Of a stretch of 64,000 nucleotides of DNA, positions 7,769 to 61,410 are shown piece after piece. The translations under genes were made by a program, and so were the position numbers. Numbering within the stretch: position 1 is the stretch's first letter; each line of letters begins with the position of its first letter. Location: positions 23,102 to 87,101 of the forward strand of contig JBAYPM010000005.1 in assembly GCA_041677705.1 (NCBI GenBank), read 5' to 3'. The notes below the pieces were generated by a model that searched no databases, had not been told where the DNA came from, and was given only the letters and a program-made list of their open reading frames with translations. Origin of the DNA: Weeksellaceae bacterium. GTDB taxonomy: Bacteria; Bacteroidota; Bacteroidia; Flavobacteriales; Weeksellaceae.

Positions 7769-7790
7769 ACAATAACACATTCACTGATCA

Positions 7791-13076: not shown

Positions 13077-13095
13077 CATTCTAAACAATTTTCCT

Positions 13096-15084: not shown

Positions 15085-15095
15085 AAGTATGCTTT

Positions 15096-27129: not shown

Positions 27130-27223
27130 CAAAAATAAACCTCTAACGATTTGATTAAAAGATTGCTAGAGGTTTTTTCTTGCTTAAAACTCCCGACATA
27201 TTCCCGATTCTGAGGAGACCATA

Positions 27224-34103: not shown

Positions 34104-35313
34104 CTAATTTAGTTTGATTGTAACCGATTAATGCTTGAAGAAAATCTCCCAATATAGAAAAATCTCCTAGTTTTAAGAGATGCTTCTCTTCTGTATCTTC
34201 ATCGGATTTAATTTTTTGAATGCAATTGGCTAAGTTATCTTCATCTTCCATTTCAGATGGGGTTTTCCATTTAGCTCTTACTGTTCCTATTATTGCTTCA
34301 TCAAAAGACCATAAAGCAAGATTATTTCTGTTTAGTGCCAATTGCATAGCTTTTGGATAACGTTCAATTTTCTTTTCATCTTTTTCATAGGTTAAAGTGT
34401 CAAATAGTAAAGCAATAGCCATAGAGTTTGGATTAGCTTTTAACGCATTCAAGATAGTATCATTCAAATGTTCATCATTAAATGAATAACCAATTAATAC
34501 CATCAGCGAATTAGGTTGCCTTAGAAATTTATTAAGTTGGTCTATTAAAGCTAAATATGGCATTTTTCTACTTTGCTCATACTTTAAGTGAGAAGGATAT
34601 ATCAGAGAAGAATCTCCGCTTTCCTTTGTAGCTATTGATCTATAGACTTCTTTGCTCTCTTTTTGAAACCAATTTATAGATCCGTGTATCTTCCATAATC
34701 GCGTCCAATGCTTGGGTATCAAGTTGTCCTCTACTGCACGTAAGTCAAAAAAAGATTGTCTTGAGCCTACAAAACCATCAAAGTAGGGGATTGACAAGGC
34801 CTCAAAGGCTTCTTCTAGTAGTACGTCGTAATTAGTAGTAAAAACTTCAATGGGTTTTTCTCTATCAATTGAAATCCATTGTGCGAGTTTGTGATATGGC
34901 GTGTCATTATCAGGAAGATTTACCATAAGTTTTTCAACTATCTTCCTGCAAATATTCTTTTCGAGCTCTATCAAGTTTTCATTTGTAAATCCTCTAACAG
35001 AATTACCGATTGAAACTTCTTTCAATCCACGAAGAAAACTCAATATATCTTCAATATTATTACTATCCTTTTGAGAAAGAATTACTTCGTCAACGAGTCT
35101 GTCATAATCATTTTTTGTGTCTGTTTCTGACTTTAGTTCTTTGGTGACAAATTCGGTTAGTTTTGCGACATCAGGAATTAATGGCCATTTGCCTTCTGGC
35201 ATCTTTACAGCAAGTGGACAACCTGCCGAAATAAAAAATCCTAATGGTTTTTTGTCTTGAGATAATGTTTGCCTCAGAAACTTTATATGCTTTACGGGGT
35301 CGTGTGTAATCAT
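34093..35313 (-). CDS. SIR2_2-family sirtuin (predicted NADase of a SIR2-HerA defence system)
   Basis: SAGC, FTTNYD, KIHGSINW, IGYSFNDEH; overlaps the HerA start. Confidence 0.9.
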   Translation of the reverse strand: MITHDPVKHIKFLRQTLSQDKKPLGFFISAGCPLAVKMPEGKWPLIPDVAKLTEFVTKELKSETDTKNDYDRLVDEVILSQKDSNNIEDILSFLRGLKEVSIGNSVRGFTNENLIELEKNICRKIVEKLMVNLPDNDTPYHKLAQWISIDREKPIEVFTTNYDVLLEEAFEALSIPYFDGFVGSRQSFFDLRAVEDNLIPKHWTRLWKIHGSINWFQKESKEVYRSIATKESGDSSLIYPSHLKYEQSRKMPYLALIDQLNKFLRQPNSLMVLIGYSFNDEHLNDTILNALKANPNSMAIALLFDTLTYEKDEKKIERYPKAMQLALNRNNLALWSFDEAIIGTVRAKWKTPSEMEDEDNLANCIQKIKSDEDTEEKHLLKLGDFSILGDFLQALIGYNQTKLDEK

Positions 35314-35422: not shown

Positions 35423-37480
35423 TTACAGGGCTTTTAATTCTTCAAATTCTTGTGGAATACTCAATCCTTTTTTGTAATTTTCAATATTTGAATGATTTCT
35501 GTATTTTCCAATTAATGTATTTATCGTTATAGCTGTAAAAAGAAAAACAATTATTGAAAAGCTACCAGAAATTAGAATGTTTGTTTGTAGTGTTTTGAAG
35601 TATTCAATGGCGTCATTAATATTCCAATTTGAGTTAATCAAAAGATATAATATACCACCTATAAACAGTCCAATACCAAAAAAAAGCTCAATCCAACTTT
35701 TTCTTCTCCATTTTGATACCTCCTTCTTAATCCATTCATCTCTTAAAAGTTTTCGAGAGTAATTCTGTTCAATTAGTAGTTTGTTTTCAAGTTCTGATAC
35801 TTTTTTATTGCTCTCATTTCTTTCTTCCAAAACTTGACCAAATACTTTGATTTTGTTGTCATAATTTATCTTGGACTTTTCAAGTTCATCAGTTCGCAAT
35901 GCAATATCCTTAAAAACTTTTTCTAATTTTTTAATTCTACTCTCTTCAAGTCGTTTTTGTTTTTCAGCCTCTCCTTCAAGTCGTTTTACAAATTGTTCTT
36001 TGTCTTTTTCAGCAAGAATATTTAACTCCTCAATATCTTTTAATTGTTTATTTGTAATTCTTGTTGCAACTCTTACAATATCGGCATCACTTATAGCCTC
36101 CTTTGCATATTTATGAATATTATTATCTAACTCTCTTAAAATATTTGATTTGGGTAAATTTTTGTTTAGTGTTAATGATATTATTGAAGTTAAACCAATC
36201 TCTGCTAAATCTCCCCCTTCAATTTCTCTATTTGTTTGAGGATTACTTAACCATAAAATATTCAACAAATCGTCAGCTTTTATAGTTTCTGGCTGAAACC
36301 CCTCTTTTAAAAAGATATTATCTCCTTCAACAGAAGCTGAATTATTAACAAACCAAGCATTTACTTTTTCAAAATCCTTAATCCTTTTACCTCTTTTCTT
36401 TTTGATGTAAAGAATTGCAACTGCATCGTGTAATGCAGATTTTCTCGTGGTTCTAACCTGTTCGAAAATTTTAAATTCATCGGTAAATTTTGCCTCATTT
36501 TTTAATTTGTCTGTATTATACAATACACTTATACCAAATTCATGTATTGAACTTTCCAGATTGTCCGCAACGCGCTCTAAATCTGTTTTAGAAAAACCTT
36601 TTCTATCACAAGCGTTATACACGTCTTCTGGATTAACTTTTTTCTGTAAAAAAGATTTGTCAAAAAATGCGGCCTTTGTTTCTAAAAGATTTTTAGTTTC
36701 TTCTATTGTGTCTTTTAAAACATGGATTTTAAAGCCTTGCTGTTTACTAATTTTTACTAAAGTTCTACAAGTGTGAGTTGATTCAGGTGTGTTCAAGTCT
36801 AACAATGCAACAATAAAATTAGTATCCAATAATAGCTCTATTTCACTTTTCACACTGTCTGGATTGTACTCAATGTAGCCAGATATGATTGAGCCTAGAT
36901 AAATATTTTTAATTCTGTCGTAAATTGTGGGTATTCTTCTGAAGAAATTAATAAATTGAGCTTCTGCTGTATAGTCCTCGCCATTAATATGTTGATTATT
37001 GGATATGTATTTTGAAAGAGTGAATTTATTCTTCTCAATAAAATTGAAGATAGTATTTCCATTTTCGATTTCTAATTCAGATGTTTCGCAAAATTTTTTA
37101 AATAATTCTTCTAGTTCATTTATTTCATTTTCTTGATTTGCAATAATATCCTCAAAGTCGGTAAATGTATATTGATTAATACTAAAAGCACCATCTTTAT
37201 ATAGTATAAAATGCGTTGTTTCTTCTGTATTTACTTCCTTACAAATTTCTTCTAGGATTTTTTTCAAAACGGGAATTGGGAAGTCTAAAGAATACAGAGA
37301 GTCTGTTTTGCTTTTTATTTCTAAAATACTTTTTCCTTTAAAAATTCCTTCAATGTTCATCTTTGATAGGGCCCTCTTAACAAGAGGGATAAATATATCA
37401 ATTGGACCTTTTACTAATGTCCCAGTATTTCGAATATGAGCCAACAAGCCATAAGTTACTGCTCTTTCCTTATTATTCAT
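35423..37480 (-). CDS. Large protein: central PIN-like domain, coiled coil, two C-terminal TM helices
   Basis: LLLDTNFIVALL, DTIEE, ALHDA acidic motifs; charged heptad region; WIELFFGIGLFIGGILYLLI and ILISGSFSIIVFLFTAITI. Confidence 0.65.
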   Translation of the reverse strand: MNNKERAVTYGLLAHIRNTGTLVKGPIDIFIPLVKRALSKMNIEGIFKGKSILEIKSKTDSLYSLDFPIPVLKKILEEICKEVNTEETTHFILYKDGAFSINQYTFTDFEDIIANQENEINELEELFKKFCETSELEIENGNTIFNFIEKNKFTLSKYISNNQHINGEDYTAEAQFINFFRRIPTIYDRIKNIYLGSIISGYIEYNPDSVKSEIELLLDTNFIVALLDLNTPESTHTCRTLVKISKQQGFKIHVLKDTIEETKNLLETKAAFFDKSFLQKKVNPEDVYNACDRKGFSKTDLERVADNLESSIHEFGISVLYNTDKLKNEAKFTDEFKIFEQVRTTRKSALHDAVAILYIKKKRGKRIKDFEKVNAWFVNNSASVEGDNIFLKEGFQPETIKADDLLNILWLSNPQTNREIEGGDLAEIGLTSIISLTLNKNLPKSNILRELDNNIHKYAKEAISDADIVRVATRITNKQLKDIEELNILAEKDKEQFVKRLEGEAEKQKRLEESRIKKLEKVFKDIALRTDELEKSKINYDNKIKVFGQVLEERNESNKKVSELENKLLIEQNYSRKLLRDEWIKKEVSKWRRKSWIELFFGIGLFIGGILYLLINSNWNINDAIEYFKTLQTNILISGSFSIIVFLFTAITINTLIGKYRNHSNIENYKKGLSIPQEFEELKAL

Positions 37481-37604
37481 TATTTCTATGGTTCTGATTT
37501 TCAAGCTTTGCCTATTACTCCCAAATATCTAAAATATTCTCAAATTTCACAAAAAAATTCATAAATTAGACCCGTAAGATTCAATAATTTGTTTGACATA
37601 ATCT

Positions 37605-38075
37605 ATGACAACAACTTCCAAAATATTATATCTTACATTTTTCTTATTACCACTTCTTGCCTACTCGCAAGTCACGGCAAAAGTTGTTGGTATAAAAGAC
37701 GGAGATACTATTGTCGTACTTCTAAAAAATAAAACCCAACAAACCCTTCGATTAGCAGAAGTAGATTGCCCTGAAAATGGTCAAGCCTTTGCAAGAAACG
37801 CAAAACAGTTTACTTCAGATGCCGTTTTTAGAAAAGAAATAACATATATAGAAACAGATCGGGACAGGTGGGGACGCATAATCGCCAAGGTATATTACGA
37901 TGACAATTTATACCTCTCTGCGGAAATCATAAAAGCAGGTATGGGATGGTGGTATTATAGATATTCTGATGATGAAAGTTTAGGCGATTTAGAAAATGAT
38001 GCTAAAACAAATAACCGAGGTTTATGGCAAGACTCCAATGCAATTGCCCCATGGGAATTTAGGAAATTAAAATAA
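37605..38075 (+). CDS. Thermonuclease (SNase-like) with signal peptide
   Basis: IKDGDTI, RLAEVDCPE, DRWGRIIA, GLWQD..PWEFR. Confidence 0.92.
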   Translation: MTTTSKILYLTFFLLPLLAYSQVTAKVVGIKDGDTIVVLLKNKTQQTLRLAEVDCPENGQAFARNAKQFTSDAVFRKEITYIETDRDRWGRIIAKVYYDDNLYLSAEIIKAGMGWWYYRYSDDESLGDLENDAKTNNRGLWQDSNAIAPWEFRKLK

Positions 38076-38414
38076 TTTCATTTATTCTTTGTTTCATATC
38101 CACATAATATTTTTCCTTTTTACCTGTAAGTTTATTGTCCAGTTTATAACATTCTTCAACAATTTGAAGAATTTCCCTCTTCTCTTTCACGACTAATAAC
38201 TCACAAAAATTTAGGTTTAGAAATTGTATAACTTCTATTAGCTTATTCCATCCACTAAAATGTCAGCTCTTTCTATACGACCAACTGATGTGTTTGTAGA
38301 GCCAATCCTTAAAGCAAGATCAAATTGGGAAATACCCAATTTTAAACGAGCAAGCTTAATTCTATGCCCAAGATAAATATTAACCTTCTTAAATTCTTTC
38401 TCGCTGAATATCAT
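38059..38414 (-). pseudogene. Frameshifted XRE-family HTH regulator
   Basis: MIFSEKEFKK...LGHRIKLARLKLGISQFDLALRIGSTNTSVGRIERA, then continues in another frame (GWNKLIEVIQFLNLNFCEL...) after about 38263; not in ORF track. Confidence 0.65.
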
Positions 38415-38423
38415 ACTTCTATA

Positions 38424-38675
38424 TTAGTAATTAAATAAATCCCTCAAAGAAACATTTAGGACTTTAGATAGTGCCAATAGGGTTTCAAATGAAGGATTTG
38501 TCTCTCCTCTCTCAATCTCCCCAATTGTTTTTTTAGACAAATATTCACTTCTATCACTTAATTCTTGTTGTGATATTGACCTATTATTATATTCAGTGCT
38601 TTTGATTTTCTTTCTTAATTTAAGAACATGCTTACCAAGCTTCTCTTTCTCAATTTCAAAATCTATTTTATTCAT
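38424..38675 (-). CDS. XRE-family HTH regulator
   Basis: LGKHVLKLR...SQQELS...TIGEIERGETNPSFETLLALSKVL; start placed at MNKIDF. Confidence 0.88.
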   Translation of the reverse strand: MNKIDFEIEKEKLGKHVLKLRKKIKSTEYNNRSISQQELSDRSEYLSKKTIGEIERGETNPSFETLLALSKVLNVSLRDLFNY

Positions 38676-38741
38676 TTTATAAATTTCCTTGTTAAAGAGG
38701 AATTTTTTGGTAACGTATAGGGTACTATAAATAATTTTATT

Positions 38742-38749
38742 TATATTTG
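38742..38749 (+). promoter_or_regulatory. -7 promoter box pointing into ncRNA-like copy 1
   Basis: tatatttg (TAnnTTTG), divergent from the XRE gene. Confidence 0.55.
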
Positions 38750-38802
38750 CCTCGAATAACATATTGCAATTCTTCCAATAGGAATAAAATATTGAAGCAA
38801 TT

Positions 38803-38951
38803 GCTTGGAATCTCGCCCGAAAACTGGTAATTTTCAAAGAAACGAGACCAATAAGCAAGATGCTCACGTCCCGGGCGTGGCCTTCTTATCGTTCCTTAGG
38901 CGTACCAGTGCCTCGATTCGGTAAGTTGAGTTCACGCCCTTTTTCTTGCGT
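38803..38951 (+). ncRNA. Candidate structured ncRNA, copy 1
   Basis: Non-coding, strongly similar to 39374..39526; complementary blocks ACTGGTA/TACCAGT and GGGCGTG/CACGCCC; ends in a T run. Confidence 0.6.
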
Positions 38952-38979
38952 AGTAACTCACAGCCATATCATTCTTAAT

Positions 38980-39219
38980 CTAATACTTCTTTATATCGAA
39001 TTCAAAATCAAACAATTGTTTTGGTTGAACATTTAATGCTTGTGCAAATTTCAACAAAGTACTTATTGTGAGATTTATTTTCCCCTGTTCATATCTGCTA
39101 ATTTCTGAATTCTCAATCCCGGTAAGAAAACTTAAGTCATTTTGTGTTTGCTTATTCTTTTCCCGAAATTCTGCAATCTTGTTACCAATTCCCTCTAAAA
39201 AATCGCTTTTAATATCCAT
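38980..39219 (-). CDS. XRE-family HTH regulator
   Basis: IGNKIAEFR...TQNDLSFLTGIENSEISRYEQGKINLTISTLLKFAQAL. Confidence 0.9.
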   Translation of the reverse strand: MDIKSDFLEGIGNKIAEFREKNKQTQNDLSFLTGIENSEISRYEQGKINLTISTLLKFAQALNVQPKQLFDFEFDIKKY

Positions 39220-39300
39220 AGTAAGCTTTGTTTTAAAAGCAATTTCCCTTTATTTTGATAAAATTTTATTGGGATATATCACAATATTGAAATAAATTCT

Positions 39301-39308
39301 TATATTTG
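39301..39308 (+). promoter_or_regulatory. -7 promoter box pointing into ncRNA-like copy 2
   Basis: tatatttg, same arrangement as in copy 1. Confidence 0.55.
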
Positions 39309-39373
39309 TTCAATAGTTACATCAATAGATGTAATTTAGCGATTCTTCGATTAGGAAAATATTAGAAGCTTTC

Positions 39374-39526
39374 GCTTAGAATCTCGCCTTTGGAAACTGG
39401 TAATTTAAATCGGAACGAGAGGATAAGCAGAAGGCTCACGACCGCGGGCGTGGGCTTTCTTACTGTTCCTCGGTATACCAGTACCTCAAAGGCGGTAAGT
39501 TGAGTTCACGCCCTTTTTTCTTGCGT
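39374..39526 (+). ncRNA. Candidate structured ncRNA, copy 2
   Basis: Homologous to 38803..38951 with compensatory changes in the outer helix. Confidence 0.6.
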
Positions 39527-39918
39527 ATTCTTCAACTGATTTTCTAGGCATCTTCTCATTCTTCCGGAGATTGCAACAATTAACTTGTAATAAATCAAAA
39601 AAAAAGTGCCTATGTAAAAAAACATCTGAAACAACTGCAGTAAGAGAAAAATTATTCTTTCACAAACCTGTCCAATAAAGCGTGTGTTAATTATTTGGTC
39701 CCTCTGCTTTGGCTCAAGAAGTCAGGGTAAGCACATCCAAAGCCGACGCAGAGGGTTTTTCAAAAGAAAGAAAAAGGGGCAAAAACACCTTTGCCCGAAC
39801 GATCCACCGCTGCTTACTGTCCCACCATTACATAAAAATGCCCTCTGCAACTGACTTGACAAACAATGCAGAGAGCACGGATTTTAAAATAAAGTATCAC
39901 TAAAACCCATTCAAAATT

Positions 39919-42900
39919 ATGAAAAAAATTTTATCATTAGGGAAGAAGTTTGTGCCGGGCTGTACCTTTTTACTCGTCCTCATAGCCTTAAACGCCTTCG
40001 CGCCGGCACATAACTCTCCCATAAAATCAAACCTCAATACACAAATCGACCAGGACGACTTCATCACCGGCACAGTCTCCGATTTGGGAGGGCCAATACC
40101 CGGTGTCCTGATTACCGTCAAAAACACAAATATTTCTGCTGTAACAGATGAAAACGGTCATTACACCATTTCTGCCCTACCCGGAGATATCCTCATATTC
40201 TCATACGAAGGCTACGAAACCATTGAACTGGAAGTAGGCATTGACCCAATCATTGACGTTGAACTCTATGAAGCCGTAGCCCTCGAAGAAGCCGTGATCA
40301 ATGCAGGATACTATCAGGTTAAAGACCGTGAACGTACCGGAAGTATCTCCCGAATAACAGCAGAAGAAATTGAAAACCAACCGGTCGGAAATGTACTTGC
40401 TGCCATACAGGGAAGAATGCCGGGCGTCAATATAATTCAAAATTCAGGAACTCCCGGCGGTGGATTTGAAGTACAAATCAGGGGAATAAACAGCTTGCGA
40501 AGAGAAGGCAATTATCCATTATACATAATCGACGGTGTGCCTGTCAATGCTTCCACTCCGTCTTTTTTTGGCAGCCGGGCACTTCCTTACGCAGAAATCA
40601 ACCCACTCAATTCAATAAACCCAAACGATATTGAAAGTATTGAAGTCTTGAAAGATGCAGACGCTACCGCCATATATGGTTCCCGTGGAGCCAATGGTGT
40701 GATTCTGATTAATACAAAGAAAGCAAAATCAGACAGAACGAATTTCAGTTTTCAGTCAAGTTACTCGATTAGTCAGCTTGGAAAGAAAATGAAAATGATG
40801 AATACAGACCAATATATTGAAATGAGAAAGTATGCTTTCCAAAATGACGGTATTTCGGAATATCCTGCCAATGCATTTGATTTAAACGGAGCATGGAATT
40901 CCGATCGTTATACAAATTGGCAGGATCAAATTTTAGGTAAAACAGCAGCCGGTTTAAATTTGCAATTCACTTTAAGCGGCGGAAAGGATAAAACACATTA
41001 CCTCCTGAGTGGAAGTCATAACGAACAACAAACTGTATTTTCAAACAAATTTCTGTACAAATACAATAATCTTGTGGGAAATTTCAGTCACAAATCCGAT
41101 GACAGCAGACTGGAATTAAATGTCTCTGGATTGTTCTCAGCACAGCAAAATGATATAATCAACGGAGACCTGACCAATAGTGCGCTTACACTCAGTCCAA
41201 ATGCTCCAAAATTATACGATGAAAACCATAATCTCAATTGGGAAAATAACACATTTGAAAACCCGTTGGCAATTTTTGAAAGCACTTATGATAATGAAAG
41301 CATTGATCTCAATTCAAATCTAAACCTCAGATATGAATTATTTCCTTCATTCTTTCTGAAATTCAACGGAGGTATAAATTATCAGGAATTTGAAGAGACC
41401 GTACTGCGCCCCAGCACTATGTACAACCCGTCAATGGGAGTTACGCCTGCAAGTTCCAGTATTACAAGAGGAAACAGACGTTACCTCTCTTATCTGTTGG
41501 AACCCCAGCTGAATTACAAAACGACCTTTAAAAATCATGAGTTAGATATATTAATTGGAGGAACCTTTCAACAAAGTAATTCATCCTATTTGGGGCTGTA
41601 TGCATCAGGATTTGAGACAAACTCTCTTATCACAAACTTAGCGGCAGCAAATAATCTTTCAGTAACAAATGATGATTTATCACAATATAATTACGCCGCA
41701 TTATTCGGCCGAATTAACTATCAATTCCGGAATAAATACATTTTAAATCTGACCGGTAGAAGAGATGGCTCAAGCAGATTCGGCCCCAATAACAGATTTG
41801 CAAACTTCGGGGCTGTTGGCATCGCCTGGATTTTTTCACAGGAGAATTTATTAAAAGACCTGTCCTGGTTGAGTTTCGGAAAATTAAGAGGGAGTTTTGG
41901 TATTACCGGAAATGACCTGATCGGTGACTATCAATATCTGGATACCTATGGGATTAGCAGTAATCAATATGGCGGAAATTCAGGATTATATCCTTCAAGG
42001 CTTTACAATCCGGATTTCAGCTGGGAAAAAACACAAAAAACAGAATTTGCTGTCGAACTTGGGTTTATAAAAAACAGATTAAACTTATTTGTAAACAGGT
42101 ATGAAAATAAATCAGGAAATCAACTGGTTGGAATCCCTTTGCCGGGAACAACCGGTTTCAGTTCTGTGCAGGCAAATCTGGATGCTACAGTTAAAAATAC
42201 CGGATGGGAATTTGTGCTGACCGCAAAACCCATATCAGGCAAAAGCTTTTTGTGGGAAACAAATTTCAATATAAGTTTCCCAAAAAATAAACTTGTTTCA
42301 TTCCCAAACTTAGAAGGCTCCACATATACCAACAAATATGTAATTGGGCAACCGGTTACTATTGTAAAAGTTTACAATTTCGAAGGTATTGACCCTGAAA
42401 CGGGTCTCTACTCCTTTACAGATTATAATAATGACGGCAACCTCTCTGCGTCGGATGATGCTCAGGCAATCCGAAATCTCGGTATTCGCTATACCGGAGG
42501 ATGGAGCAATCAGTTCTCTTATCGAAATTGGAAATTATCTTTCCTCTTTCAATTTGTGAAACAATTGCAGTGGAATTACAACAATATCATGAAAATGCCG
42601 GGTACTTTTTACAATCAGCCGGTTGAGGTTCTCAATGTTTGGTCAGCTTCCAATCCAAAAGGACAATATATGCCTTATTCAACCGGGATGAATCCTGAAA
42701 TATCTCAAAGACACCTGATGTTTATGAATAGTACGGCCGCTATTAGCGATGCTTCATTTATCCGTTTGAAAAATATTCAGATAAATTATCAAATACCGCT
42801 TAAACAATCAGAAATGAGGATAAATGTATTTGTTCAGGGTCAAAACCTTTTGACTTTTACTGATTATTTCGGACTTGATCCGGAATTTCGTCTGGGTGGT

Positions 42901-42951
42901 TATCTCCCACCTCTAAAAACTTATGCTTTTGGATTCCAATTAACATTCTAA
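39919..42951 (+). CDS. SusC/RagA family TonB-linked outer membrane protein
   Basis: CarboxypepD-like N-domain, IEVLKDADATAIYGSRGANGVILINTK signature, C-terminal F. Confidence 0.95.
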   Translation: MKKILSLGKKFVPGCTFLLVLIALNAFAPAHNSPIKSNLNTQIDQDDFITGTVSDLGGPIPGVLITVKNTNISAVTDENGHYTISALPGDILIFSYEGYETIELEVGIDPIIDVELYEAVALEEAVINAGYYQVKDRERTGSISRITAEEIENQPVGNVLAAIQGRMPGVNIIQNSGTPGGGFEVQIRGINSLRREGNYPLYIIDGVPVNASTPSFFGSRALPYAEINPLNSINPNDIESIEVLKDADATAIYGSRGANGVILINTKKAKSDRTNFSFQSSYSISQLGKKMKMMNTDQYIEMRKYAFQNDGISEYPANAFDLNGAWNSDRYTNWQDQILGKTAAGLNLQFTLSGGKDKTHYLLSGSHNEQQTVFSNKFLYKYNNLVGNFSHKSDDSRLELNVSGLFSAQQNDIINGDLTNSALTLSPNAPKLYDENHNLNWENNTFENPLAIFESTYDNESIDLNSNLNLRYELFPSFFLKFNGGINYQEFEETVLRPSTMYNPSMGVTPASSSITRGNRRYLSYLLEPQLNYKTTFKNHELDILIGGTFQQSNSSYLGLYASGFETNSLITNLAAANNLSVTNDDLSQYNYAALFGRINYQFRNKYILNLTGRRDGSSRFGPNNRFANFGAVGIAWIFSQENLLKDLSWLSFGKLRGSFGITGNDLIGDYQYLDTYGISSNQYGGNSGLYPSRLYNPDFSWEKTQKTEFAVELGFIKNRLNLFVNRYENKSGNQLVGIPLPGTTGFSSVQANLDATVKNTGWEFVLTAKPISGKSFLWETNFNISFPKNKLVSFPNLEGSTYTNKYVIGQPVTIVKVYNFEGIDPETGLYSFTDYNNDGNLSASDDAQAIRNLGIRYTGGWSNQFSYRNWKLSFLFQFVKQLQWNYNNIMKMPGTFYNQPVEVLNVWSASNPKGQYMPYSTGMNPEISQRHLMFMNSTAAISDASFIRLKNIQINYQIPLKQSEMRINVFVQGQNLLTFTDYFGLDPEFRLGGYLPPLKTYAFGFQLTF

Positions 42952-42961
42952 AACAAAAAAA

Positions 42962-44335
42962 ATGAAAAAAATATTCTTTATTTTATTGAGCATATTTATA
43001 GCAATTGCTGCAATACTCACATCTTGTGAAGACCTAATCGAAACAGATTACCCAACCAATCAGATTGGCACCGCACAGGTTTTTGACAATGTTCATACAG
43101 CCAATTCAGCTCTTAATGATATATACGCTGAATTAAGGACTCAATCATTCTTTTCCGGAGTTGACACAGGTACAGGTATTTTATTGGGAATGTACACAGA
43201 TGATATAGATTGTTATTACAACGATCAAAACGGATTCAGGGATATATATCTTAACATGCAGCAGGCATCAAACTCGGTTGTGGAACTTTCTTGGGACACT
43301 GCTTATAAAATTATCTATGCTGCAAATTCCATCATTCTTGGTGTTGAAAATTCAACAGGGTTGAATGAAACAGAAAAAGATCAAATTAAAGGAGAAGCTT
43401 TATTGATCCGCACTGTTTTCTATTTTTATTTACAACAATTATTTGGCGGCATACCTTATACAACCAGTATTGATTATGAATACAATCGTACACTTTCAAA
43501 AACCAATGAAAATGAACTGCTTACAATACTTTCAAATGATTTGGTTGAAGCCTCCCAACTTCTGAACGATGATTATCGACATCCGGAACGTATTTATGTC
43601 AACAAAAAAGTTGCTGAGTTGATGTTGGCAAAAGTTTACCTGACACAAGGTAATTATTCCCTCGCTGAACAAACCATAATGTCCGTTCTTCAATCTCCGT
43701 TGTATCAGTTTCAGCCTGATTTGAATGAAGTTTTCCATAACACCGGAAATCATATTTTATGGCAGCTGCAACCTATGGTTGCATTATTTCCAACTTGGGA
43801 ATCGCTGTTTTTTTACTTTACGGATGCACCGCCGCATGCATTTGCATTAACTGATAATTTAGTCAGTTCGTTTTCAGAAAATGATTTAAGAAAAACAGCA
43901 TGGATTGAACCTGTCACATTCAATAACCAAGTTTGGTACAGACCAAACAAATACAAAAACATTGATGTTAATCCGGATGAATACTCTGTGGTTATAAGAA
44001 TTGAAGAAGCCTATTTCATTATGGCTGAGGCCTTGGCTCGGCAAAATAGGATCAGTGAAGCTTTGCCTTATATAAATATGACTCGCGAGAGAGCAGGCTT
44101 ACAGCCGTTAGGCAGTGTTTCTCAGGAAGTATTTATAACAGAATTACTCAATGAAAGAAGAAGAGAATTCTTTACAGAATTCGGACACAGATTTATTGAT
44201 TTAAAAAGATTGGAAAAACTTCACATTTTATCAGGTGTAAAACCCAATTGGGTTGAAAGTAAAAAAGTATGGCCAATTCCACAAAAGGAATTACTGCTAA
44301 ATCCAAATCTTAATCCCCAAAATGAAGGTTATTAA
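42962..44335 (+). CDS. SusD/RagB family lipoprotein
   Basis: Lipobox ILTSC, GEALLIR, ERRREFFTEFGHRFIDLKR, WPIP. Confidence 0.95.
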   Translation: MKKIFFILLSIFIAIAAILTSCEDLIETDYPTNQIGTAQVFDNVHTANSALNDIYAELRTQSFFSGVDTGTGILLGMYTDDIDCYYNDQNGFRDIYLNMQQASNSVVELSWDTAYKIIYAANSIILGVENSTGLNETEKDQIKGEALLIRTVFYFYLQQLFGGIPYTTSIDYEYNRTLSKTNENELLTILSNDLVEASQLLNDDYRHPERIYVNKKVAELMLAKVYLTQGNYSLAEQTIMSVLQSPLYQFQPDLNEVFHNTGNHILWQLQPMVALFPTWESLFFYFTDAPPHAFALTDNLVSSFSENDLRKTAWIEPVTFNNQVWYRPNKYKNIDVNPDEYSVVIRIEEAYFIMAEALARQNRISEALPYINMTRERAGLQPLGSVSQEVFITELLNERRREFFTEFGHRFIDLKRLEKLHILSGVKPNWVESKKVWPIPQKELLLNPNLNPQNEGY

Positions 44336-46811
44336 TCTTATCATCTTTACTCTTGGCCTGGCAATTTTGTCAGGTCAGGAGTCAAAAGATAGAAATACTA
44401 AAATATTTAAAAGTTTATCCGATAAGACATACCTGCCAATCAATCTTCAAATGAGCGAAAATGGTAAATGGATAAGTTTCTTGAAGTCTTACGATTCAAA
44501 TAGGGATACTTTGGTTATTTTAAAAAGCACAAAACCAAATTCTTTTCAATTCTTTAGAACTGGTTTCAATTCAGTATTATTCAGCAAAAATGACTATGTG
44601 CTTTTAAACAATGAATCTGAAACAGAGTTTCTCAACCTGAATTCCGGAAACGCCTTAATATTTCAGAATGTTTGGAGAAGTGCGTTCCTCAACCAAAAAG
44701 AGCAATTTATATTGCATTACAACGACAACAATCAGAATAAATTAGAATTGCGTGATTTTAATGGGAATATCATAAATAGCGAACATCATATTAAAAATTT
44801 CTTTTTATCTGATTTCGAAAATCTTTACCTTATATCTGAAAGTGGCTATGGAATTTCAGAAATCATAACTTTCAACAACAAGGAAAAAACTGTCTGGTAC
44901 TCTTCTTCCAACCCTATTCAGGATCTTTATATAGATCCAGGCGAAAAAAGTTTAATTATATACTCTGAAAACAATCAGGACAAAAGTAAATTAATTACAT
45001 TTTATGAGCTCCAAACCAAAACAGCCTATCATTTAAACAAGCTGCTGGAATTTCAGCCTCTCTGGGGAAACAGTAAAACAATCATCGAAGGGGATTGCTA
45101 TTTTATCAGACTCTTTAAAAAAACTGAAACTGCCGGTGATTTAGTTGATTTATGGTACGGAAGCGATAACCGGCTCGAGAAAAAGTTCGAACAGCCCATA
45201 GAAGAAATAGATTATTTGTGGTTCCCTAAAAAACAAAAGATTCAAAGAATTGGAACAGATGAATTAAGCAAAAATGCTCCACTAAATAAGGATGGTTTAT
45301 TTTTAAGTTTTAACCCTTATTTACTCGAAGATTACACAAAGGAAAAAGCAGATATACTGCTGTATATATTTAACAGCACCACAAATCAAATTGAGCCATT
45401 AGACACCCTGACTCCCGAGATTCATATTTCTCCTGATGGAAATTTTCTTCTTTCACCAAAAAATAAGGAATGGCATTTATTTGATCTGAAACGAAAGAAA
45501 AGAGTAACAATAAACAACCCGAATCTAAAAAGACCGGTTTTTACTTCAGATGGAAAATCTGTGTATTTTGAGGGAGTTGGTGGCCTGTGGGAATACCTTC
45601 TTTACAAAAATAAGCTTCAAAATATATTAGATTTTAGAGAATATGAAACCAGTATCTTAAACTACAAAATGAATATTGTATTGGATGGCTACAATTTCTT
45701 TCAAAACTCAATAGATCCGGATACCCCCCTTATTATAAAATTATTTGATGAGGAAAAAAATACATCTGCCATTGTCAGGTTTTACAAACAAAATGCTTCG
45801 TATATCGTCTATCCGACTGACAATCATATTCGGTCTGTAACCTATGATTTGAATTATCAGAATTTTGCTTATTGGGAAGAAAATTTTAACTCTCCTCCTG
45901 TTTTGTTCAATTTGCCTTTTAACAAAAAGAAATTTCCAATATATTTTACCAATAAAAATGACAGTCAAATAAAGAATGTAAAACAGCGAGTCATTTCCTA
46001 TCAGGATTCTTTTGGAAATGATTTAAAAGGGATATTGTATTTCCCCATAAACTACGAACCCAATAAACAGTTTCCGCTTGTAACACATATCTACGAAAAG
46101 CAAAATCATTTAAGAAATCGATATTTAAACTTTGATTACAAAACAGGAGTGGGTTTCAACATAAGGTCTTTGATTGAAAAAGATTATTTCGTATTCCTGC
46201 CGGACATTCAGATAAATCAAAACGGGCCCGGACAATCTGCATTGGATTGTATTGGTAATGCAATTAAAGCATTAAGAAAGGAATCACTTTCGGTGAGTAA
46301 AATGGCTCTGATAGGACATTCCTTTGGCGGCTACACAACAAATTACATCGCGACTCAGTCAGATTTCTTTGCAACTTATATCTCAGGTGCGGGAAAGAGT
46401 GATTTAATCCATAGTTATTACTCCTTTAATTACAATTTTTTGACCCCGGATTACAGACGGATAGAATCAAGCATTTACAACATGAAATTCTCATTTTCAG
46501 ATAATAAAGAATTATATTATATCAATAATCCCATTTATTATGCTGACTCGGTAAAAGCACCCGTTTTATTATGGTCTGGGGAGAATGATGAGAATGTTCC
46601 CAAAAGCGAAAGTATTGGTTTTTACCTTGCGTTAAAAAGAAATAATAAGAAAGTTATTACTTTATTTTATAGAAATGAAATACACAGTCTGCAACGCAAA
46701 GAATCTCAAATTGATCTTATGCTGCGTATTTGGGATTGGTTGGATTATTTTTTGAAAAATGCCAATGACATAGAATGGATAGACAATGAAATAAAAAAGG
46801 GTGCTCTTTAA
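44322..46811 (+). CDS. S9 (prolyl oligopeptidase/DPP-like) peptidase with N-terminal propeller
   Basis: GHSFGG nucleophile, DENV, EIH triad residues; signal peptide. Confidence 0.9.
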   Translation: MKVINLIIFTLGLAILSGQESKDRNTKIFKSLSDKTYLPINLQMSENGKWISFLKSYDSNRDTLVILKSTKPNSFQFFRTGFNSVLFSKNDYVLLNNESETEFLNLNSGNALIFQNVWRSAFLNQKEQFILHYNDNNQNKLELRDFNGNIINSEHHIKNFFLSDFENLYLISESGYGISEIITFNNKEKTVWYSSSNPIQDLYIDPGEKSLIIYSENNQDKSKLITFYELQTKTAYHLNKLLEFQPLWGNSKTIIEGDCYFIRLFKKTETAGDLVDLWYGSDNRLEKKFEQPIEEIDYLWFPKKQKIQRIGTDELSKNAPLNKDGLFLSFNPYLLEDYTKEKADILLYIFNSTTNQIEPLDTLTPEIHISPDGNFLLSPKNKEWHLFDLKRKKRVTINNPNLKRPVFTSDGKSVYFEGVGGLWEYLLYKNKLQNILDFREYETSILNYKMNIVLDGYNFFQNSIDPDTPLIIKLFDEEKNTSAIVRFYKQNASYIVYPTDNHIRSVTYDLNYQNFAYWEENFNSPPVLFNLPFNKKKFPIYFTNKNDSQIKNVKQRVISYQDSFGNDLKGILYFPINYEPNKQFPLVTHIYEKQNHLRNRYLNFDYKTGVGFNIRSLIEKDYFVFLPDIQINQNGPGQSALDCIGNAIKALRKESLSVSKMALIGHSFGGYTTNYIATQSDFFATYISGAGKSDLIHSYYSFNYNFLTPDYRRIESSIYNMKFSFSDNKELYYINNPIYYADSVKAPVLLWSGENDENVPKSESIGFYLALKRNNKKVITLFYRNEIHSLQRKESQIDLMLRIWDWLDYFLKNANDIEWIDNEIKKGAL

Positions 46812-46822
46812 AAAGGCACCCT
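46798..46822. terminator. Possible bidirectional terminator between convergent operons
   Basis: agggtgc...gcaccct stem spanning the S9 stop codon. Confidence 0.55.
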
Positions 46823-46834
46823 GATCCAATTAAA

Positions 46835-47101
46835 TTATGGTTGATTCAATTGGATTCCACACATCGTCTGTTGTGACGGATTAAACCTATACAAAGGACT
46901 GCCATCAGTCCATGTACAGGTTGGATTTGGCAAATGCGAACAATTCACTGTCGTGACTATGCATTTCTTAGTGACGGTATCATAACGATACCCCTTTTCA
47001 AGCACAGCATCTGAATCTTGTGAAATGTTTGTTGCCAAAGCAGCACCGGTCCCTATTAAGGCAATAACAACCGGAAAAACAAAATTTTTGATTTTTTTCA
47101 T
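46835..47101 (-). CDS. Small secreted 4-Cys peptide (DUF6520-like)
   Basis: 88 aa; signal-like MKKIKNFVFPVVIALIGTGAALA; core with four Cys. Confidence 0.8.
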   Translation of the reverse strand: MKKIKNFVFPVVIALIGTGAALATNISQDSDAVLEKGYRYDTVTKKCIVTTVNCSHLPNPTCTWTDGSPLYRFNPSQQTMCGIQLNQP

Positions 47102-47134
47102 AATATCAAAATTTAAATAGAACCTACTCTTTTT

Positions 47135-48655
47135 TTAAGGGTTTTCGGCTTCTCCCTGTTTGAAATACTGCATTACTGACGGCGCCAGTCTGTAACCCAA
47201 TATCTCAGTTCCGGACAATACATAAAAATGAGTGTCCGTTACAAGCATATGTGTCATTTTTTCCTTGCCCCGGGTTTCAATGAAAAAACTTCCCAGATAA
47301 ATCTTTTCGTTTATATTGTATATGTCAATGACAACTGCCTTATCCCAGATTTCCTTTGATTCGTGTTTCCCCATTAAATTGGATTGATTGAACAATATCC
47401 CCTTGTATAGTATTGCTCTTTCATTTACCCTCAATGGGGGGGCTTCCATTTTAATGTTGCCGTTTGATAGTCTTTTTACTTTAACTTGAGCACGGCTTAT
47501 GGTATCGATGGTTTTGAGCTTCCTAAGAAACTTTAAATCACCATCAAAAACAGGAATTTCATTTCGATAATAATATACATACACAAATTCATTCTTGCCT
47601 TCCGCTCTATCTCCCAATAAAATTCCATCGGTATCAAATATCCCGTCAGACTGTTTGCTTAGCAAGTCGTAATTCAACCTGACATCTGAAGAATCTCCAA
47701 CTTTTAAAGCACCTATAATTCTTGACTTTGTTTTTGCAGACTGGGTATTAATTACAAACCTGGCTGAATCAGCAATCTCTAATTGTGTGAAAAATGCATC
47801 ATTAAAACTTAGAGTTTTCGCTGTACTTTCATTTAAATTCCCTCTGTATAAAACCGGAACCGATCCATCGTAAATATAATAGTATGGCGGTTTTACCTTA
47901 ATCTCAATGAAGCGAAAATTATAACTCGAATAATCCGGTTCGATTTTCGTACTCCTTTCTTTGATAAACGCCGTGTCTGTAACAGTCAAAACCAGAGGTG
48001 CAGTATAATTGCCCAAGTAAATTTGCCCATTATCATACCCTGCAAAATAATAAGAATTGAATTTCAAATCATAATATTTCTCCAATGTAATGGCATGCGG
48101 GATAAACCTCCTTACAAAAGGATTTTCCTTTTTTATAATATGTTCTGAAGAGAAAAACAAACCGATTACAATACCTGTTGAAAAAACAAATGACACAATA
48201 CCTCTTGTCAGTATCCTCCTGAAACCCTTTGTTCTCCTATTCTCCATTATCCATAAGGCCCAGCCCCCTAACAATATGAATCCTATATTAAAAACCAAAT
48301 GCTCCGTCCAGCCCATATCTTCCAATATTCCGCCGCAGGAGCAGGGTATGAATTCACTGTAATTTAAGATAAGGGAAATGTATATGGTGAAAGCTGCCAT
48401 AAGAGAGAATGACAAATACAGCCCAACCAATCTTGTAACCCTAAAAGACAGGAAAATCACAGTAATCAATTCAATCGCTATAATTACCGGTGCCACCAAT
48501 CCGGCATAAGCACTTAATAAAGGAGATTGAGCCAGTTGTATCTGAAAATCCTCAAATTCTATCAGTTTGCTCACTGCCGCATACACAAAAAGCAATACAA
48601 ATAGATAGGCGGCTGCATCAGCCGATAGATTTTTTAATTGAGTCAGGGATTTCAT
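47135..48655 (-). CDS. MauE/DoxX membrane domain fused to a large extracytoplasmic domain
   Basis: LFVYAAVSKL, QLAQSP, IPCSCGGILE..GWTEHLVFN, then a TM and about 340 aa soluble region. Confidence 0.85.
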   Translation of the reverse strand: MKSLTQLKNLSADAAAYLFVLLFVYAAVSKLIEFEDFQIQLAQSPLLSAYAGLVAPVIIAIELITVIFLSFRVTRLVGLYLSFSLMAAFTIYISLILNYSEFIPCSCGGILEDMGWTEHLVFNIGFILLGGWALWIMENRRTKGFRRILTRGIVSFVFSTGIVIGLFFSSEHIIKKENPFVRRFIPHAITLEKYYDLKFNSYYFAGYDNGQIYLGNYTAPLVLTVTDTAFIKERSTKIEPDYSSYNFRFIEIKVKPPYYYIYDGSVPVLYRGNLNESTAKTLSFNDAFFTQLEIADSARFVINTQSAKTKSRIIGALKVGDSSDVRLNYDLLSKQSDGIFDTDGILLGDRAEGKNEFVYVYYYRNEIPVFDGDLKFLRKLKTIDTISRAQVKVKRLSNGNIKMEAPPLRVNERAILYKGILFNQSNLMGKHESKEIWDKAVVIDIYNINEKIYLGSFFIETRGKEKMTHMLVTDTHFYVLSGTEILGYRLAPSVMQYFKQGEAENP

Positions 48656-48783
48656 ATCAAACCAAACTGTTTGTACAAAATTAAATACCCCCAAACAATA
48701 AATTATTTACCAAATCCGGACAATAATTGACTGAATCTGAACCGGTTTTGCCCCGGTCAGCAAATATTAACCAATGGTCGGAC

Positions 48784-50409
48784 TTATTTCCTGAAACCCT
48801 CCAGATACTCGGTCAGCGTTTTGCCGATTCTCAATTTGAAAGCACGGACAAAACGGTCATTCGAACTGAAGCCAACTTCCCTTGCAAGCGATTCACTCTT
48901 ATACAAACGCAATTGGCTGTTTTCATTCAGCAGTTTAACCAAATGATCTATACGGAGATCATTGATGTAATTTGAAAAATTCTTTTTTCTGTAATATTGA
49001 ACAGCCTTGTTCAGATACATAACATTTGAACCAAAATAGGCCGCAAGTTTTGCCTGTGTCCAGTCCCCTTTCAAAAACCTTCCCGACGCCTCAAATTCAT
49101 CCAGCTTTCTTTTCAATCGCTTAACACTCTCTGAATTTATAAAATAATCATCATCCGGGATTTTTACCGTTGGCCGGCCTGACTCAGGCGGAATCAAAAC
49201 CTTAACCCCGTTAAAAATTGATTTACCGCTTAATAATACTGTGAAAACAAGAGTGAAAAATGAAAACAGTGAAACACGAATCCAAAAACCAAATTTGTTT
49301 CTCCCCTCTGAATCGGTATCATTGAATTTTTTCGAATTGACATATTCTTTAACATCATAATGATGAAAAACACTTTTTGACAATTTACGGTATTGGGTTT
49401 CAAGTATCCTGTCGGCTTTTACAAGCTGTTTCAGATAATATTCCTGTAAAGCGAAATCCTCTCTTCCTTTATAATGATTGGCAAGATAGGTGTATGCCTC
49501 ACGCAAATCGGAACGGATGTATTCCTTCTCATTAAAAATCCTGTCAACCTCAACAAAACATTCTGTCGCTTTCTCAATCTCATTCATTCCAAAATAACTG
49601 ACACCCAGATAAAACCAGCTGACAGCCTCATTTGCAAAATCATTCTTGTTTCGAATTGATTCCAGACTCTCACTTAACAGAAATATTGCTTTTTTATGAT
49701 CCCGCCGAATGCTTTGATTAATCCCTTCAATTTGAGTAAAATAACCGTCAAGATTCGAAATTGACAATCGCTTGGACTCACTTCTTCCCTTTCTTATGTA
49801 GGCATCACTGTGTGAATAACTCCCCAAACGGCTGCTGCAGAGCGCAAGAGCGTGCAGTGTATTGATATAGCCTCTGGCATTATTCATTTCAAAATAAACA
49901 GCACACTCTTCATATATTTTAATCGCCTCATCATAATATTCCAGATAACTTTTAATCTGAGCGATATTGTACCTTGTTTTATAATACAGATATTCATCCT
50001 TTGTTTTATCAACTAAGGAATCGGCAGCCAGATAATACTGAAATGCTGTTTCGTATTTTTTGTATTTGTAATGCTGAATACCCGCAGAAAGATAGGCAGT
50101 GGCTTTTAAGCCCGTATCATTGCTCAGCATTGCAGCCCATATCATACTGTCACCATACATACAGGCTTCTTTTTCATCGGATTGATGACCCGTCCTGCGA
50201 TAAGCCTTGATAAGCTCCGGATAATTCTTTTCTGTTTTATAAAATTGAATCCTGCACCGTAAATCCATCGTATCCTCCAACTTGCTTTGATAATGATCCT
50301 CCGGCAGATTTTCAGTTTTCAAACCATCGCGGATATGAGCAAACGACAATAAAACAGTGTAAATCAATAAACAGATTACCAACCTGAATGCAAATAAAAT
50401 ACCCTTCAT
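48784..50409 (-). CDS. Transmembrane TPR-sensor / AraC-HTH one-component regulator
   Basis: N-terminal hydrophobic segment, TPR-like helices, TM FWIRVSLFSFFTLVF, C-terminal YLNKAV...NFSNYINDLRI...EVGFSS...F.RAFK. Confidence 0.85.
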   Translation of the reverse strand: MKGILFAFRLVICLLIYTVLLSFAHIRDGLKTENLPEDHYQSKLEDTMDLRCRIQFYKTEKNYPELIKAYRRTGHQSDEKEACMYGDSMIWAAMLSNDTGLKATAYLSAGIQHYKYKKYETAFQYYLAADSLVDKTKDEYLYYKTRYNIAQIKSYLEYYDEAIKIYEECAVYFEMNNARGYINTLHALALCSSRLGSYSHSDAYIRKGRSESKRLSISNLDGYFTQIEGINQSIRRDHKKAIFLLSESLESIRNKNDFANEAVSWFYLGVSYFGMNEIEKATECFVEVDRIFNEKEYIRSDLREAYTYLANHYKGREDFALQEYYLKQLVKADRILETQYRKLSKSVFHHYDVKEYVNSKKFNDTDSEGRNKFGFWIRVSLFSFFTLVFTVLLSGKSIFNGVKVLIPPESGRPTVKIPDDDYFINSESVKRLKRKLDEFEASGRFLKGDWTQAKLAAYFGSNVMYLNKAVQYYRKKNFSNYINDLRIDHLVKLLNENSQLRLYKSESLAREVGFSSNDRFVRAFKLRIGKTLTEYLEGFRK

Positions 50410-56930: not shown

Positions 56931-56951
56931 TTTCCCAATAACCGGACAGTC

Positions 56952-59327: not shown

Positions 59328-59331
59328 TGCT

Positions 59332-61395: not shown

Positions 61396-61410
61396 CCCAA
61401 AGCCATCATC

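Follow-up and report, generated by a model that had tools for sequence, protein, structure and literature searches.

We examined a 64,000-nucleotide stretch of the genome of a Weeksellaceae bacterium (contig JBAYPM010000005.1, positions 23,102 to 87,101; hereafter the window) for the gene content of two convergent operons. The plus-strand operon encodes a SusC/SusD outer-membrane transporter pair (SusCD) and a secreted S9-family serine peptidase, and the minus-strand operon a membrane-anchored regulator, a fusion of a MauE domain to a β-propeller and a small exported protein of the DUF6520 family (Table 1). An initial annotation made from the sequence had described six open reading frames (ORFs) arranged in this way, and ORF listing, translation and family scans recovered all six at the positions it gave. 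The stop codons of the two operons are separated by 23 nt. The absence of a glycoside hydrolase beside SusC, SusD and the peptidase was also confirmed: no glycoside hydrolase, lyase or esterase family was found in either operon or within ~10 kb. The S9 peptidase is the sole enzyme encoded alongside SusCD, and related loci likewise contain no carbohydrate-active enzyme. The locus is thus of a type other than the polysaccharide utilisation locus (PUL).

Table 1. Features of the two convergent operons, in window coordinates (AF2, AlphaFold2; HTH, helix-turn-helix; TM, transmembrane segment).
Feature	Position	Strand	Identifying evidence
SusC/RagA-type TonB-dependent outer-membrane transporter, 1010 aa	39919-42951	+	TIGR04056, Plug PF07715
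SusD/RagB-family surface lipoprotein, 457 aa	42962-44335	+	PF14322, PF07980, lipobox Cys
S9-family serine peptidase, secreted, 829 aa	44322-46811	+	PF00326, motif GHSFGG
Hairpin gggtgc / gcaccc between the convergent operons	46799-46821	not assigned	S9 stop codon in loop
DUF6520 mini-protein, 88 aa	46835-47101	-	PF20130, signal peptide, 4 Cys
DUF805b RNA leader	47121-47158	-	Rfam RF02914
MauE-β-propeller fusion, 506 aa from the ATG at 48655	47135-48655	-	PF07291, PCSCGG; propeller from AF2
Propeller part of the MauE fusion	bases 47138-48127	-	AF2 model
TPR + 2 TM + AraC HTH regulator, 563-aa ORF	48784-50409	-	PF12833, weak TPR matches

Five of these genes recur as a cassette in other Bacteroidota. 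A scan of prokaryotes at one genome per species, using an alignment of MauE-fusion homologues, returned 450 confirmed loci, and the six-frame ORFs of the best 80 were profile-searched with the window proteins. The order MauE-fusion, DUF6520 and then, converging on these, S9, SusD and SusC was observed in ~74 of the 80 loci, and in nearly all of those lying on sufficiently long contigs; in one exception (L011) the S9 gene is present as a fragment only. Carriers include Prolixibacteraceae, Draconibacterium, Proteiniphilum, Chryseobacterium, Kaistella, Empedobacter, Myroides, Flavobacterium, Pedobacter, Sphingobacterium and Chitinophaga. Three distant members of the propeller family (31-36% identity), two of them stand-alone (P0143 and P0267) and one fused (P0170), all lie in the same cassette. 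In the P0143 and P0267 loci a separate MauE gene (145-161 aa) precedes the propeller gene (356-373 aa). Because the two are fused in some cassettes and separate genes in others, the MauE domain and the C-terminal propeller are expected to work together (a Rosetta-stone argument), and this fusion and fission places both with DUF6520, S9, SusD and SusC. Among 41 relatives of the window genome, the propeller, the cassette-type S9 and DUF6520 lie on one contig in all six complete cases and are absent elsewhere.

Recurrence of this gene arrangement is far beyond chance. The synteny of the 80 loci, the split-gene versions and the profile across the 41 relatives bear out the earlier proposal that both convergent operons form one co-inherited unit. 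That proposal had counted six genes in the unit; five are co-conserved, and the sixth, the regulator gene, has homologues in 29 of the 80 loci only. Additional copies were also encountered: two tandem DUF6520 genes follow the MauE-fusion gene in a Flavobacteriaceae locus (L076, 10537-11184), and several genomes carry two whole cassettes (e.g. L021/L055, L028/L053 and L031/L081). A search of the accessible literature returned no paper dealing with the cassette or with DUF6520, and no description of the cassette as a unit, of the MauE-propeller fusion or of a function for DUF6520. Every part of the cassette comes from a known family.

The protein that had been called MauE/DoxX contains a MauE domain at residues ~12-135 (PF07291, 105.3 bits against a cut-off of 27 in a Pfam scan) and has no significant DoxX match, and its C-terminal 330 residues, missed in the initial annotation, correspond to a propeller. 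The start codon used here is that of the database's own gene call. Hydropathy analysis gives five transmembrane helices. The CSC motif noted earlier is present as PCSCGG in the loop between TM3 and TM4, and its cysteines C105 and C107, together with K30, E35 and a QSPLLSAYA loop, are invariant among 20 homologues. Because of the positive-inside loops (RVTR and ENRRTKGFRR), the CSC loop and the entire C-terminal domain are predicted to be periplasmic. A recent preprint reports that MauE homologues replace DsbB in E. coli, that the active site of MauE is a periplasm-facing CXC between TM3 and TM4, and that docking predicts DsbB-like binding of ubiquinone; MauE is regarded there as a general oxidase with a distribution unrelated to that of MauA (bioRxiv 10.64898/2026.03.05.709764). 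The window protein has the sequence features by which that study recognises such oxidases, namely the periplasmic CXC between TM3 and TM4 and the conserved membrane Lys and Glu. The MauE domain is therefore a predicted DsbB-like disulfide oxidase, and the earlier suggestion that it handles the disulfides of a Cys-rich substrate gains support from the preprint and from the position of the CXC. This genome has a second MauE gene, which is set among housekeeping genes and has no relation to the cassette.

Sequence searches with the MauE fusion returned no match in the PDB, and neither the propeller nor the N-terminal region of the S9 peptidase matched a Pfam family at E values up to 10. An AF2 model of the C-terminal 330 residues, built on an alignment of 64 diverse sequences, is an all-β propeller with a predicted local distance difference test (pLDDT) score of 94.4 and a predicted template modelling (pTM) score of 0.92. 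The whole fusion modelled poorly on 20 close homologues (pLDDT 56.7), and the propeller-only model was used instead. Foldseek returned generic propellers only, the best at a TM-score of 0.57 to a Bacteroides DUF4221 protein (3s9j) and to NHL domains. These matches are of the six-blade type and none is to MauB, which points to a six-bladed propeller. The predicted fold suggests a binding platform and gives no chemistry. At 50% identity the propeller family comprises 1647 clusters in two architectures, ~500 aa when fused to MauE and ~355 aa when standing alone behind a single transmembrane helix; the polar motifs DGxFDTDG, YxYxYRN and TIDT are kept across the family.

Directly downstream of the MauE-propeller gene in every cassette compared is the DUF6520 gene. 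The window protein is a borderline member of this family (26.3 bits against a PF20130 cut-off of 25.4); its congeneric and distant counterparts in other cassettes reach 42-63 bits, and split cassettes also carry precomputed PF20130 matches. It had been described as an 88-aa secreted peptide with four cysteines. The length, signal and cysteines are as stated, and the product after signal cleavage, at ~65 residues, is better viewed as a folded mini-protein than as a short peptide. Alignment of 70 homologues shows a type-I signal peptide (…GAALA/T in the window protein and …GAGAAFA/T in homologues), four invariant cysteines and the conserved motifs Y[RY]xD, CS, CTW and CG..L[FY]KP, with the CTW segment missing from one clade; neither a lipobox nor a type IX secretion system (T9SS) C-terminal domain is present in the alignment. 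The label RiPP-like (for ribosomally synthesised and post-translationally modified peptides) that the system was first given is weak: the N-terminus is an ordinary Sec signal for signal peptidase I (SPI), disulfide formation is the sole tailoring function encoded, and family scans found no RiPP enzyme family in any cassette, related loci included. The four-Cys mini-protein is the obvious candidate substrate of the MauE domain, and we infer with some security from these sequences that DUF6520 docks on the propeller and has its four cysteines oxidised by the MauE domain.

Between close relatives (MauE distances of 0.02-0.2) the mature mini-protein diverges by 0.047 where MauE diverges by 0.059, and by 0.108 where MauE diverges by 0.146. 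The mini-protein thus changes no faster than MauE; it is under purifying selection, as a structural partner would be. Because it does not diversify between close relatives, a strain-private pheromone and an arms-race bacteriocin are both disfavoured. At long range the mini-protein and the S9 peptidase evolve fastest, with a mean distance of 0.68 against 0.44-0.49 for the other parts, and the two show the highest partial correlation of distances when MauE is controlled for (0.45), which is weak evidence.

The transporter and peptidase genes are equally well defined. SusC scores 708.9 bits against TIGR04056 (cut-off 368.25) and 91.8 bits against the Plug domain, contains an N-terminal CarboxypepD_reg-like domain ahead of the plug and no STN signalling domain, and is conserved in its cassette position in ~70 of the 80 loci. 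Its closest solved relatives are the SusC homologue 8aa4 (E 9e-85) and RagA (6sli, E 1.5e-68). The SusD gene begins 11 nt past the end of the SusC gene and is adjacent to SusC in all related loci; its product scores above the cut-offs of both PF14322 (73.2 bits) and PF07980 (69.2 bits), and its LTSC lipobox Cys is followed by acidic residues (LTSCEDLIETD). The S9 peptidase (PF00326, 80.9 bits; cut-off 22.6) carries an ordinary signal peptide without a lipobox and a C-terminal α/β-hydrolase catalytic domain with the triad Ser667 (GHSFGG), Asp756 and His788, which is invariant in 70 of 70 cassette homologues. From these features it is predicted to be a periplasmic peptidase with an intact triad. 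Its N-terminal ~580 residues belong to no Pfam family, and the N-terminal 550 residues are poorly conserved among the 70 homologues. Its relatives in the PDB are acylaminoacyl peptidases, aligned over the catalytic domain only. Membership of the Atxe2 lasso isopeptidase family (NF033523) was not supported, the score being 43.3 bits against a cut-off of 400 and the match confined to the catalytic domain.

Upstream of the MauE fusion the predicted membrane-spanning regulator is present, with an AraC-type HTH above its cut-off (HTH_18, PF12833; 39.9 bits against 33.6), weak TPR matches and two transmembrane segments at residues 18-36 and 395-413. The TPR lies between these segments and the HTH is C-terminal, and because the TPR domain sits between two transmembrane helices the sensor is placed in the periplasm. 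The TPR domain of RRNPP receptors is cytoplasmic, and the analogy to such receptors drawn in the initial annotation fails on this point. It also fails on co-conservation with the peptide gene: where TPR-AraC homologues do not occur, unrelated regulators are found, including cytoplasmic AraC-like proteins (24 loci), a NusG-like plus a Crp-like protein (11 loci) or an XRE-S24 repressor. The TPR-AraC homologues are mostly in Weeksellaceae, where they are usually divergent from the MauE gene and followed by RteC and excisionase-like genes. The regulator is thus specific to this lineage and lies outside the conserved core. At several Chryseobacterium loci (L069, 8500-8751; L022, 8546-8794; L058, 4834-5085) a gene for a small acidic lipoprotein (~83 aa, ending …KQHW…) without a Pfam match sits between the divergent TPR-AraC and MauE-fusion genes.

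The mini-protein gene is preceded by a DUF805b RNA element, which scores 39.7 bits against an Rfam gathering score of 35.6. The element ends 20 nt upstream of the mini-protein ATG and overlaps the last codons of the MauE fusion (…GEAENP and the stop). Its nucleotide motif, AGGGGAAGCCGAAAACCU…AGAGUAGGCA, is kept across the 80 loci with the upstream stop codon falling before, inside or after it, and in many loci the stop of the fusion gene is the UAG inside GAGUAGGCA. The near-invariant GEAEN tail of the fusion was considered as a protein motif and rejected; because the motif is kept at the nucleotide level wherever the upstream stop falls, and regardless of frame, the tail is a by-product of the RNA. 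The structure comprises a 4-bp hairpin and a 3-bp pseudoknot between loop and tail. When pairs were counted, 95% of cells were paired and 47 cells had changed on both sides, and none of 500 shuffles was as good; in split-type cassettes the middle pseudoknot pair, elsewhere invariant, carries a compensatory GAC/GUC change. With its above-threshold score and covarying hairpin, the window element shows no structural difference from RF02914. Nearly every cassette has one, and the same motif stands ahead of many unrelated exported-protein genes in relatives. DUF805b is thus a general leader, not a cassette-specific one, and we read it as a source of an independent, probably strong, translation start for the mini-protein. 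A literature search returned no paper on its function.

A hairpin equivalent to that between the two operons straddles the S9 stop codon in most related loci, where the median stop-to-stop gap is 22 nt. This hairpin is probably a shared bidirectional terminator of both operons, as judged from its structure and position. The long susC leader contains further hairpins at 39840-39876 and 39700-39760 (+); one has the form ccctctgc…gcagaggg followed by a T-run, and the second lies ~45 nt before the ATG. Many related loci have a hairpin (e.g. AAAAGCCCTTTCC…GGAAAGAGC) 40-80 nt upstream of susC, in the same position and with a different sequence. The susC-leader hairpins have no Rfam match. The regions upstream of the two operons share no 11-mers beyond those seen in permuted controls, and a sigma-70 promoter scan was uninformative for Bacteroidota.

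Several observations bear on how the cassette is inherited. The window propeller is 52-56% identical to homologues in Prolixibacteraceae and 36-38% identical to those of its own genus, the cassette occurs in 8 of the 41 relatives of the window genome, and the G+C fraction is ~0.30-0.33 over the left flank (36000-39500) and climbs to 0.36-0.42 within the cassette. Cassettes of other taxa are flanked by RteC and Xis-like genes. The propeller identities, the 8/41 distribution, the G+C shift, the mobile and defence neighbours and the double cassettes together indicate an accessory, horizontally transferred module with a patchy distribution.

A SIR2-HerA anti-phage defence pair lies at 32238-35313 (-), ~4.6 kb upstream of the cassette (PADLOC, SIR2 E 1e-144 and HerA E 5e-164). 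The interval between contains genes for a 693-aa unknown protein and a staphylococcal-nuclease-like protein, and two XRE-type HTH genes. Two copies of a ~165-nt direct repeat (38794-38955 and 39365-39530), 81-100% identical in blocks and spaced ~573 nt apart, each adjoin a small XRE-type HTH gene (38424-38867 - and 38980-39219 -, respectively); the repeat has no Rfam match. PADLOC matched only SIR2 and HerA, with no match for the S9 peptidase, DUF6520, the MauE fusion or the TPR-AraC protein, and the idea that the cassette is itself a defence system was rejected on this basis. A tRNA-Glu gene is located at 27058-27130 (+), ~13 kb upstream of the cassette, and is followed over 27131-~54000 by unannotatable genes, defence genes, the cassette, AraC genes and a DUF5675 gene. 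This segment may be a genomic island; Pfam recognised no integrase in it. Further downstream, at 55485-63999 (+), a run of genes for large secreted proteins encodes an unknown of 481 aa, an S8 subtilase that bears a T9SS C-terminal domain, a 687-aa T9SS substrate and a >863-aa protein with an SpvB-type domain. This run appears unrelated to the cassette.

The link of SusCD and S9 to the mini-protein is genetically certain, and the mechanism that connects them is tentative. We favour, with a probability of about 0.4, a cycle in which the mini-protein is folded by the MauE-propeller protein, released, recaptured by SusCD and cut by the S9 peptidase. The minus-strand module would supply the exported ~65-residue DUF6520 protein together with a dedicated folding enzyme, a quinone-linked, DsbB-like oxidase whose propeller would keep the mini-protein in place as its four cysteines form two disulfides. 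The separate translation start provided by the DUF805b leader is consistent with a substrate made in excess over its enzyme. The folded mini-protein would leave the cell by vesicles or another route and serve there as a shuttle or a public good, perhaps with a bound ligand. The plus-strand module, an outer-membrane importer with a periplasmic serine peptidase, would then recapture it through SusCD, and cleavage by S9 in the periplasm would release the cargo or end the cycle. For the Weeksellaceae, including the window genome, we infer in addition that the periplasmic TPR sensor probably reads a periplasmic product while the AraC HTH controls genes. A more specific and doubtful form of this proposal is that the two-disulfide mini-protein binds a scarce metal or cofactor outside the cell and that S9 destroys it after recapture to free that cargo. 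The cassette might then represent an extracellular shuttle of a new class in Bacteroidota, a counterpart in protein form, spread between orders on mobile elements, of siderophore/esterase or methanobactin systems, and loci with SusCD and S9 alone could be "pirates" that import the mini-proteins of neighbours.

Release and recapture is favoured because a TonB-dependent importer acts only on something outside the cell, and because the cassette otherwise conserves only an exported mini-protein. Where the gene for a TonB-dependent transporter sits in a cluster with one for a small secreted ribosomal product, the transporter usually imports that product; methanobactin with MbnT, hemophores, and the astexin-type lasso clusters with their TonB-dependent transporter and S9 isopeptidase are examples. 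There is also a precedent in Bacteroides, where BfUbb, a small disulfide protein exported through SPI, is imported via a SusCD pair encoded in a locus free of glycan enzymes (PMC11467351).

A number of observations weigh against such a cycle. The cassette encodes no outer-membrane export route, and because DUF6520 has neither a lipobox nor a T9SS C-terminal domain its default location is the periplasm. A folded protein of 7 kDa is a large cargo for SusCD, though BfUbb shows that such import is possible. Each module sometimes occurs alone: two loci (L012 and L053) have the MauE-fusion and DUF6520 genes without SusCD or S9, and in a congener of the window organism (L102, G005:C1:831000-850000, 6409-15335) a TPR-AraC gene whose product is 42% identical to the window regulator converges on SusC-SusD-S9 without MauE or DUF6520. 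The latter locus implies that the modules are separable and that in Weeksellaceae the regulator travels with the importer and peptidase. Mirror-tree correlations of distance are high among all five proteins, as linkage alone predicts, and carry no specific signal between the mini-protein and SusD.

In a possible alternative that is nearly as likely as release and recapture, the mini-protein never leaves the periplasm. SusCD would, like RagAB, import external oligopeptides or small proteins as nutrients for S9 to degrade, and the mini-protein, once oxidised by MauE and docked on the propeller or on S9, would serve as substrate adaptor, as regulator or inhibitor of the peptidase, or as redox helper for cargo rich in disulfides. 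A Sec signal without lipobox or T9SS domain predicts just this location, and with the propeller tethered to the inner membrane and S9 bearing a plain signal peptide, all soluble parts would meet there. Purifying selection on the mini-protein is as expected of a structural partner, SusC counts RagA among its nearest solved relatives, and the congener's SusC-SusD-S9 locus with the same type of regulator implies that this module functions without a self-encoded mini-protein. On the other hand, SusC is nearer to the glycan-type SusC 8aa4 than to RagA, and a purely periplasmic role leaves unexplained why a general peptide importer should be tied, phylum-wide, to one mini-protein with a private oxidase; we know of no peptide-uptake locus that needs such a partner. 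The circuit suggested at the outset, in which an oxidised pheromone leaves the cell, returns through SusCD, is trimmed by S9 and induces the locus via TPR-AraC as its sensor, seems improbable. The regulator gene of the window is directly upstream on the same strand, its TPR is on the side of the membrane where an imported and trimmed peptide would appear, and its homologues accompany the module repeatedly in Weeksellaceae, even beside SusCD-S9 alone. Most lineages, however, use unrelated regulators in place of TPR-AraC, the Chryseobacterium homologue is divergently transcribed as the first gene of an operon that includes RteC and excisionase-like genes, and no operator shared by the two operons was detected upstream of them. 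Nor does the mini-protein behave like a private signal, since it does not diversify between close relatives and its core is conserved across orders, and the RRNPP logic invoked for it belongs to cytoplasmic receptors and is not transferable.

Two other readings carry still less weight. That the mini-protein is a bacteriocin, entering competitors through their SusCD while the S9 peptidase of the producer destroys re-entering toxin as immunity, is quite unlikely, even with the precedent of BfUbb as a small SPI-exported disulfide toxin imported by SusCD (PMC11467351). The accessory, patchy and horizontally transferred nature of the cassette, its frequent proximity to mobile-element or defence genes, and the genomes with two cassettes or an extra mini-protein gene would fit a toxin; carriage of the toxin's own receptor in nearly every producer locus is the opposite of known systems, the mini-protein diversifies no faster between close relatives than housekeeping-like parts, the cassette contains no exporter or lysis gene, and no PADLOC or toxin family was matched. 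Methylamine dehydrogenase combines a MauB propeller with a small Cys-rich subunit, MauA, and has MauE as a helper. This cluster is echoed in the cassette by a MauE domain, a β-propeller and a small exported protein that is rich in Cys and has an invariant Trp (CTW), and the polar motifs kept by the propeller family might likewise suggest a quinoprotein-like enzyme, with the propeller as heavy subunit and DUF6520 as small cross-linked subunit, that acts on substrates imported by SusCD. We consider this very improbable. No MauA, MauB, MauD or MauG was found in the window cassette or related loci, none of the enzymes that could make tryptophylquinone (a MauG-like dihaem enzyme, a radical-SAM enzyme or a flavoprotein) is encoded in the cassette, and the CTW segment is missing in one clade. 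The propeller matches the six-blade type and not MauB, and MauE is now seen as a general oxidase distributed independently of MauA (bioRxiv 10.64898/2026.03.05.709764).

Comparison with known systems places each half of the cassette. The MauE domain shares with the described oxidases the PF07291 helical core, the periplasmic CXC and the conserved membrane Lys and Glu; the window motif reads C-S-C-G-G in place of the usual C-G/A-C-F-G. Fusion to a thioredoxin-fold partner is found in about 8% of MauE proteins, others use DsbA or MauD, and propeller fusions are not mentioned in the preprint (bioRxiv 10.64898/2026.03.05.709764). The cassette differs in having no thioredoxin-fold partner and, in its place, a fifth transmembrane helix and a β-propeller, with a particular small candidate substrate encoded adjacent. 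The importer module shares with RagAB uptake systems and PULs a SusC/SusD outer-membrane core and a hydrolase gene for the imported substrate; it differs in that S9 is the sole hydrolase, without any carbohydrate-active enzyme, and the mini-protein/oxidase pair is absent from PULs and ragAB. Astexin-type lasso clusters combine a precursor and maturation genes with a TonB-dependent transporter and the S9-family isopeptidase Atxe2. They resemble the cassette in placing a ribosomal exported peptide beside a TonB-dependent importer and a prolyl-oligopeptidase-family hydrolase, and in the suggested logic of release, recapture and cleavage. The phylum and the chemistry are different: the cassette contains no lasso cyclase or leader peptidase, its product is a Sec-exported disulfide mini-protein, its transporter is a SusC/SusD pair and its S9 is no member of the Atxe2 family.

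The system of BfUbb and its transporter ButCD in Bacteroides fragilis is likewise built on a small SPI-processed disulfide protein and a SusCD locus with a protease and without glycan enzymes (PMC11467351). BfUbb, however, is a ubiquitin-fold toxin that is not encoded beside its transporter and has no dedicated oxidase (PMC11467351). In target cells it is the conserved chromosomal ButCD system that is hijacked, whereas here the importer and the mini-protein are co-encoded in one cell. With the RRNPP systems (Rap, NprR, PlcR and PrgX) the window locus shares a TPR linked to a DNA-binding domain and the proximity of a gene that encodes a small exported peptide; it differs in that the TPR is periplasmic and membrane-anchored, the HTH is of AraC type, import would be via SusCD and not Opp, and the regulator is missing from most cassettes.

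The cassette is common, with 450 confirmed loci at one genome per species and more than 1600 propeller clusters at 50% identity, and it moves between orders of Bacteroidota. For the newly recognised MauE oxidases it offers a concrete, genetically defined candidate substrate, and the pairing of MauE with a propeller in place of a thioredoxin may mean direct, substrate-specific disulfide formation. It also adds a protein- or peptide-handling type of SusCD whose likely ligand is encoded next door, so that the specificity of SusCD import for folded proteins becomes directly testable. Should the mini-protein remain in the periplasm, the cassette would represent a new accessory for peptide uptake; should it be released and recaptured, it would represent a way of sharing goods or scavenging among Bacteroidota of soil, of water and of hosts.

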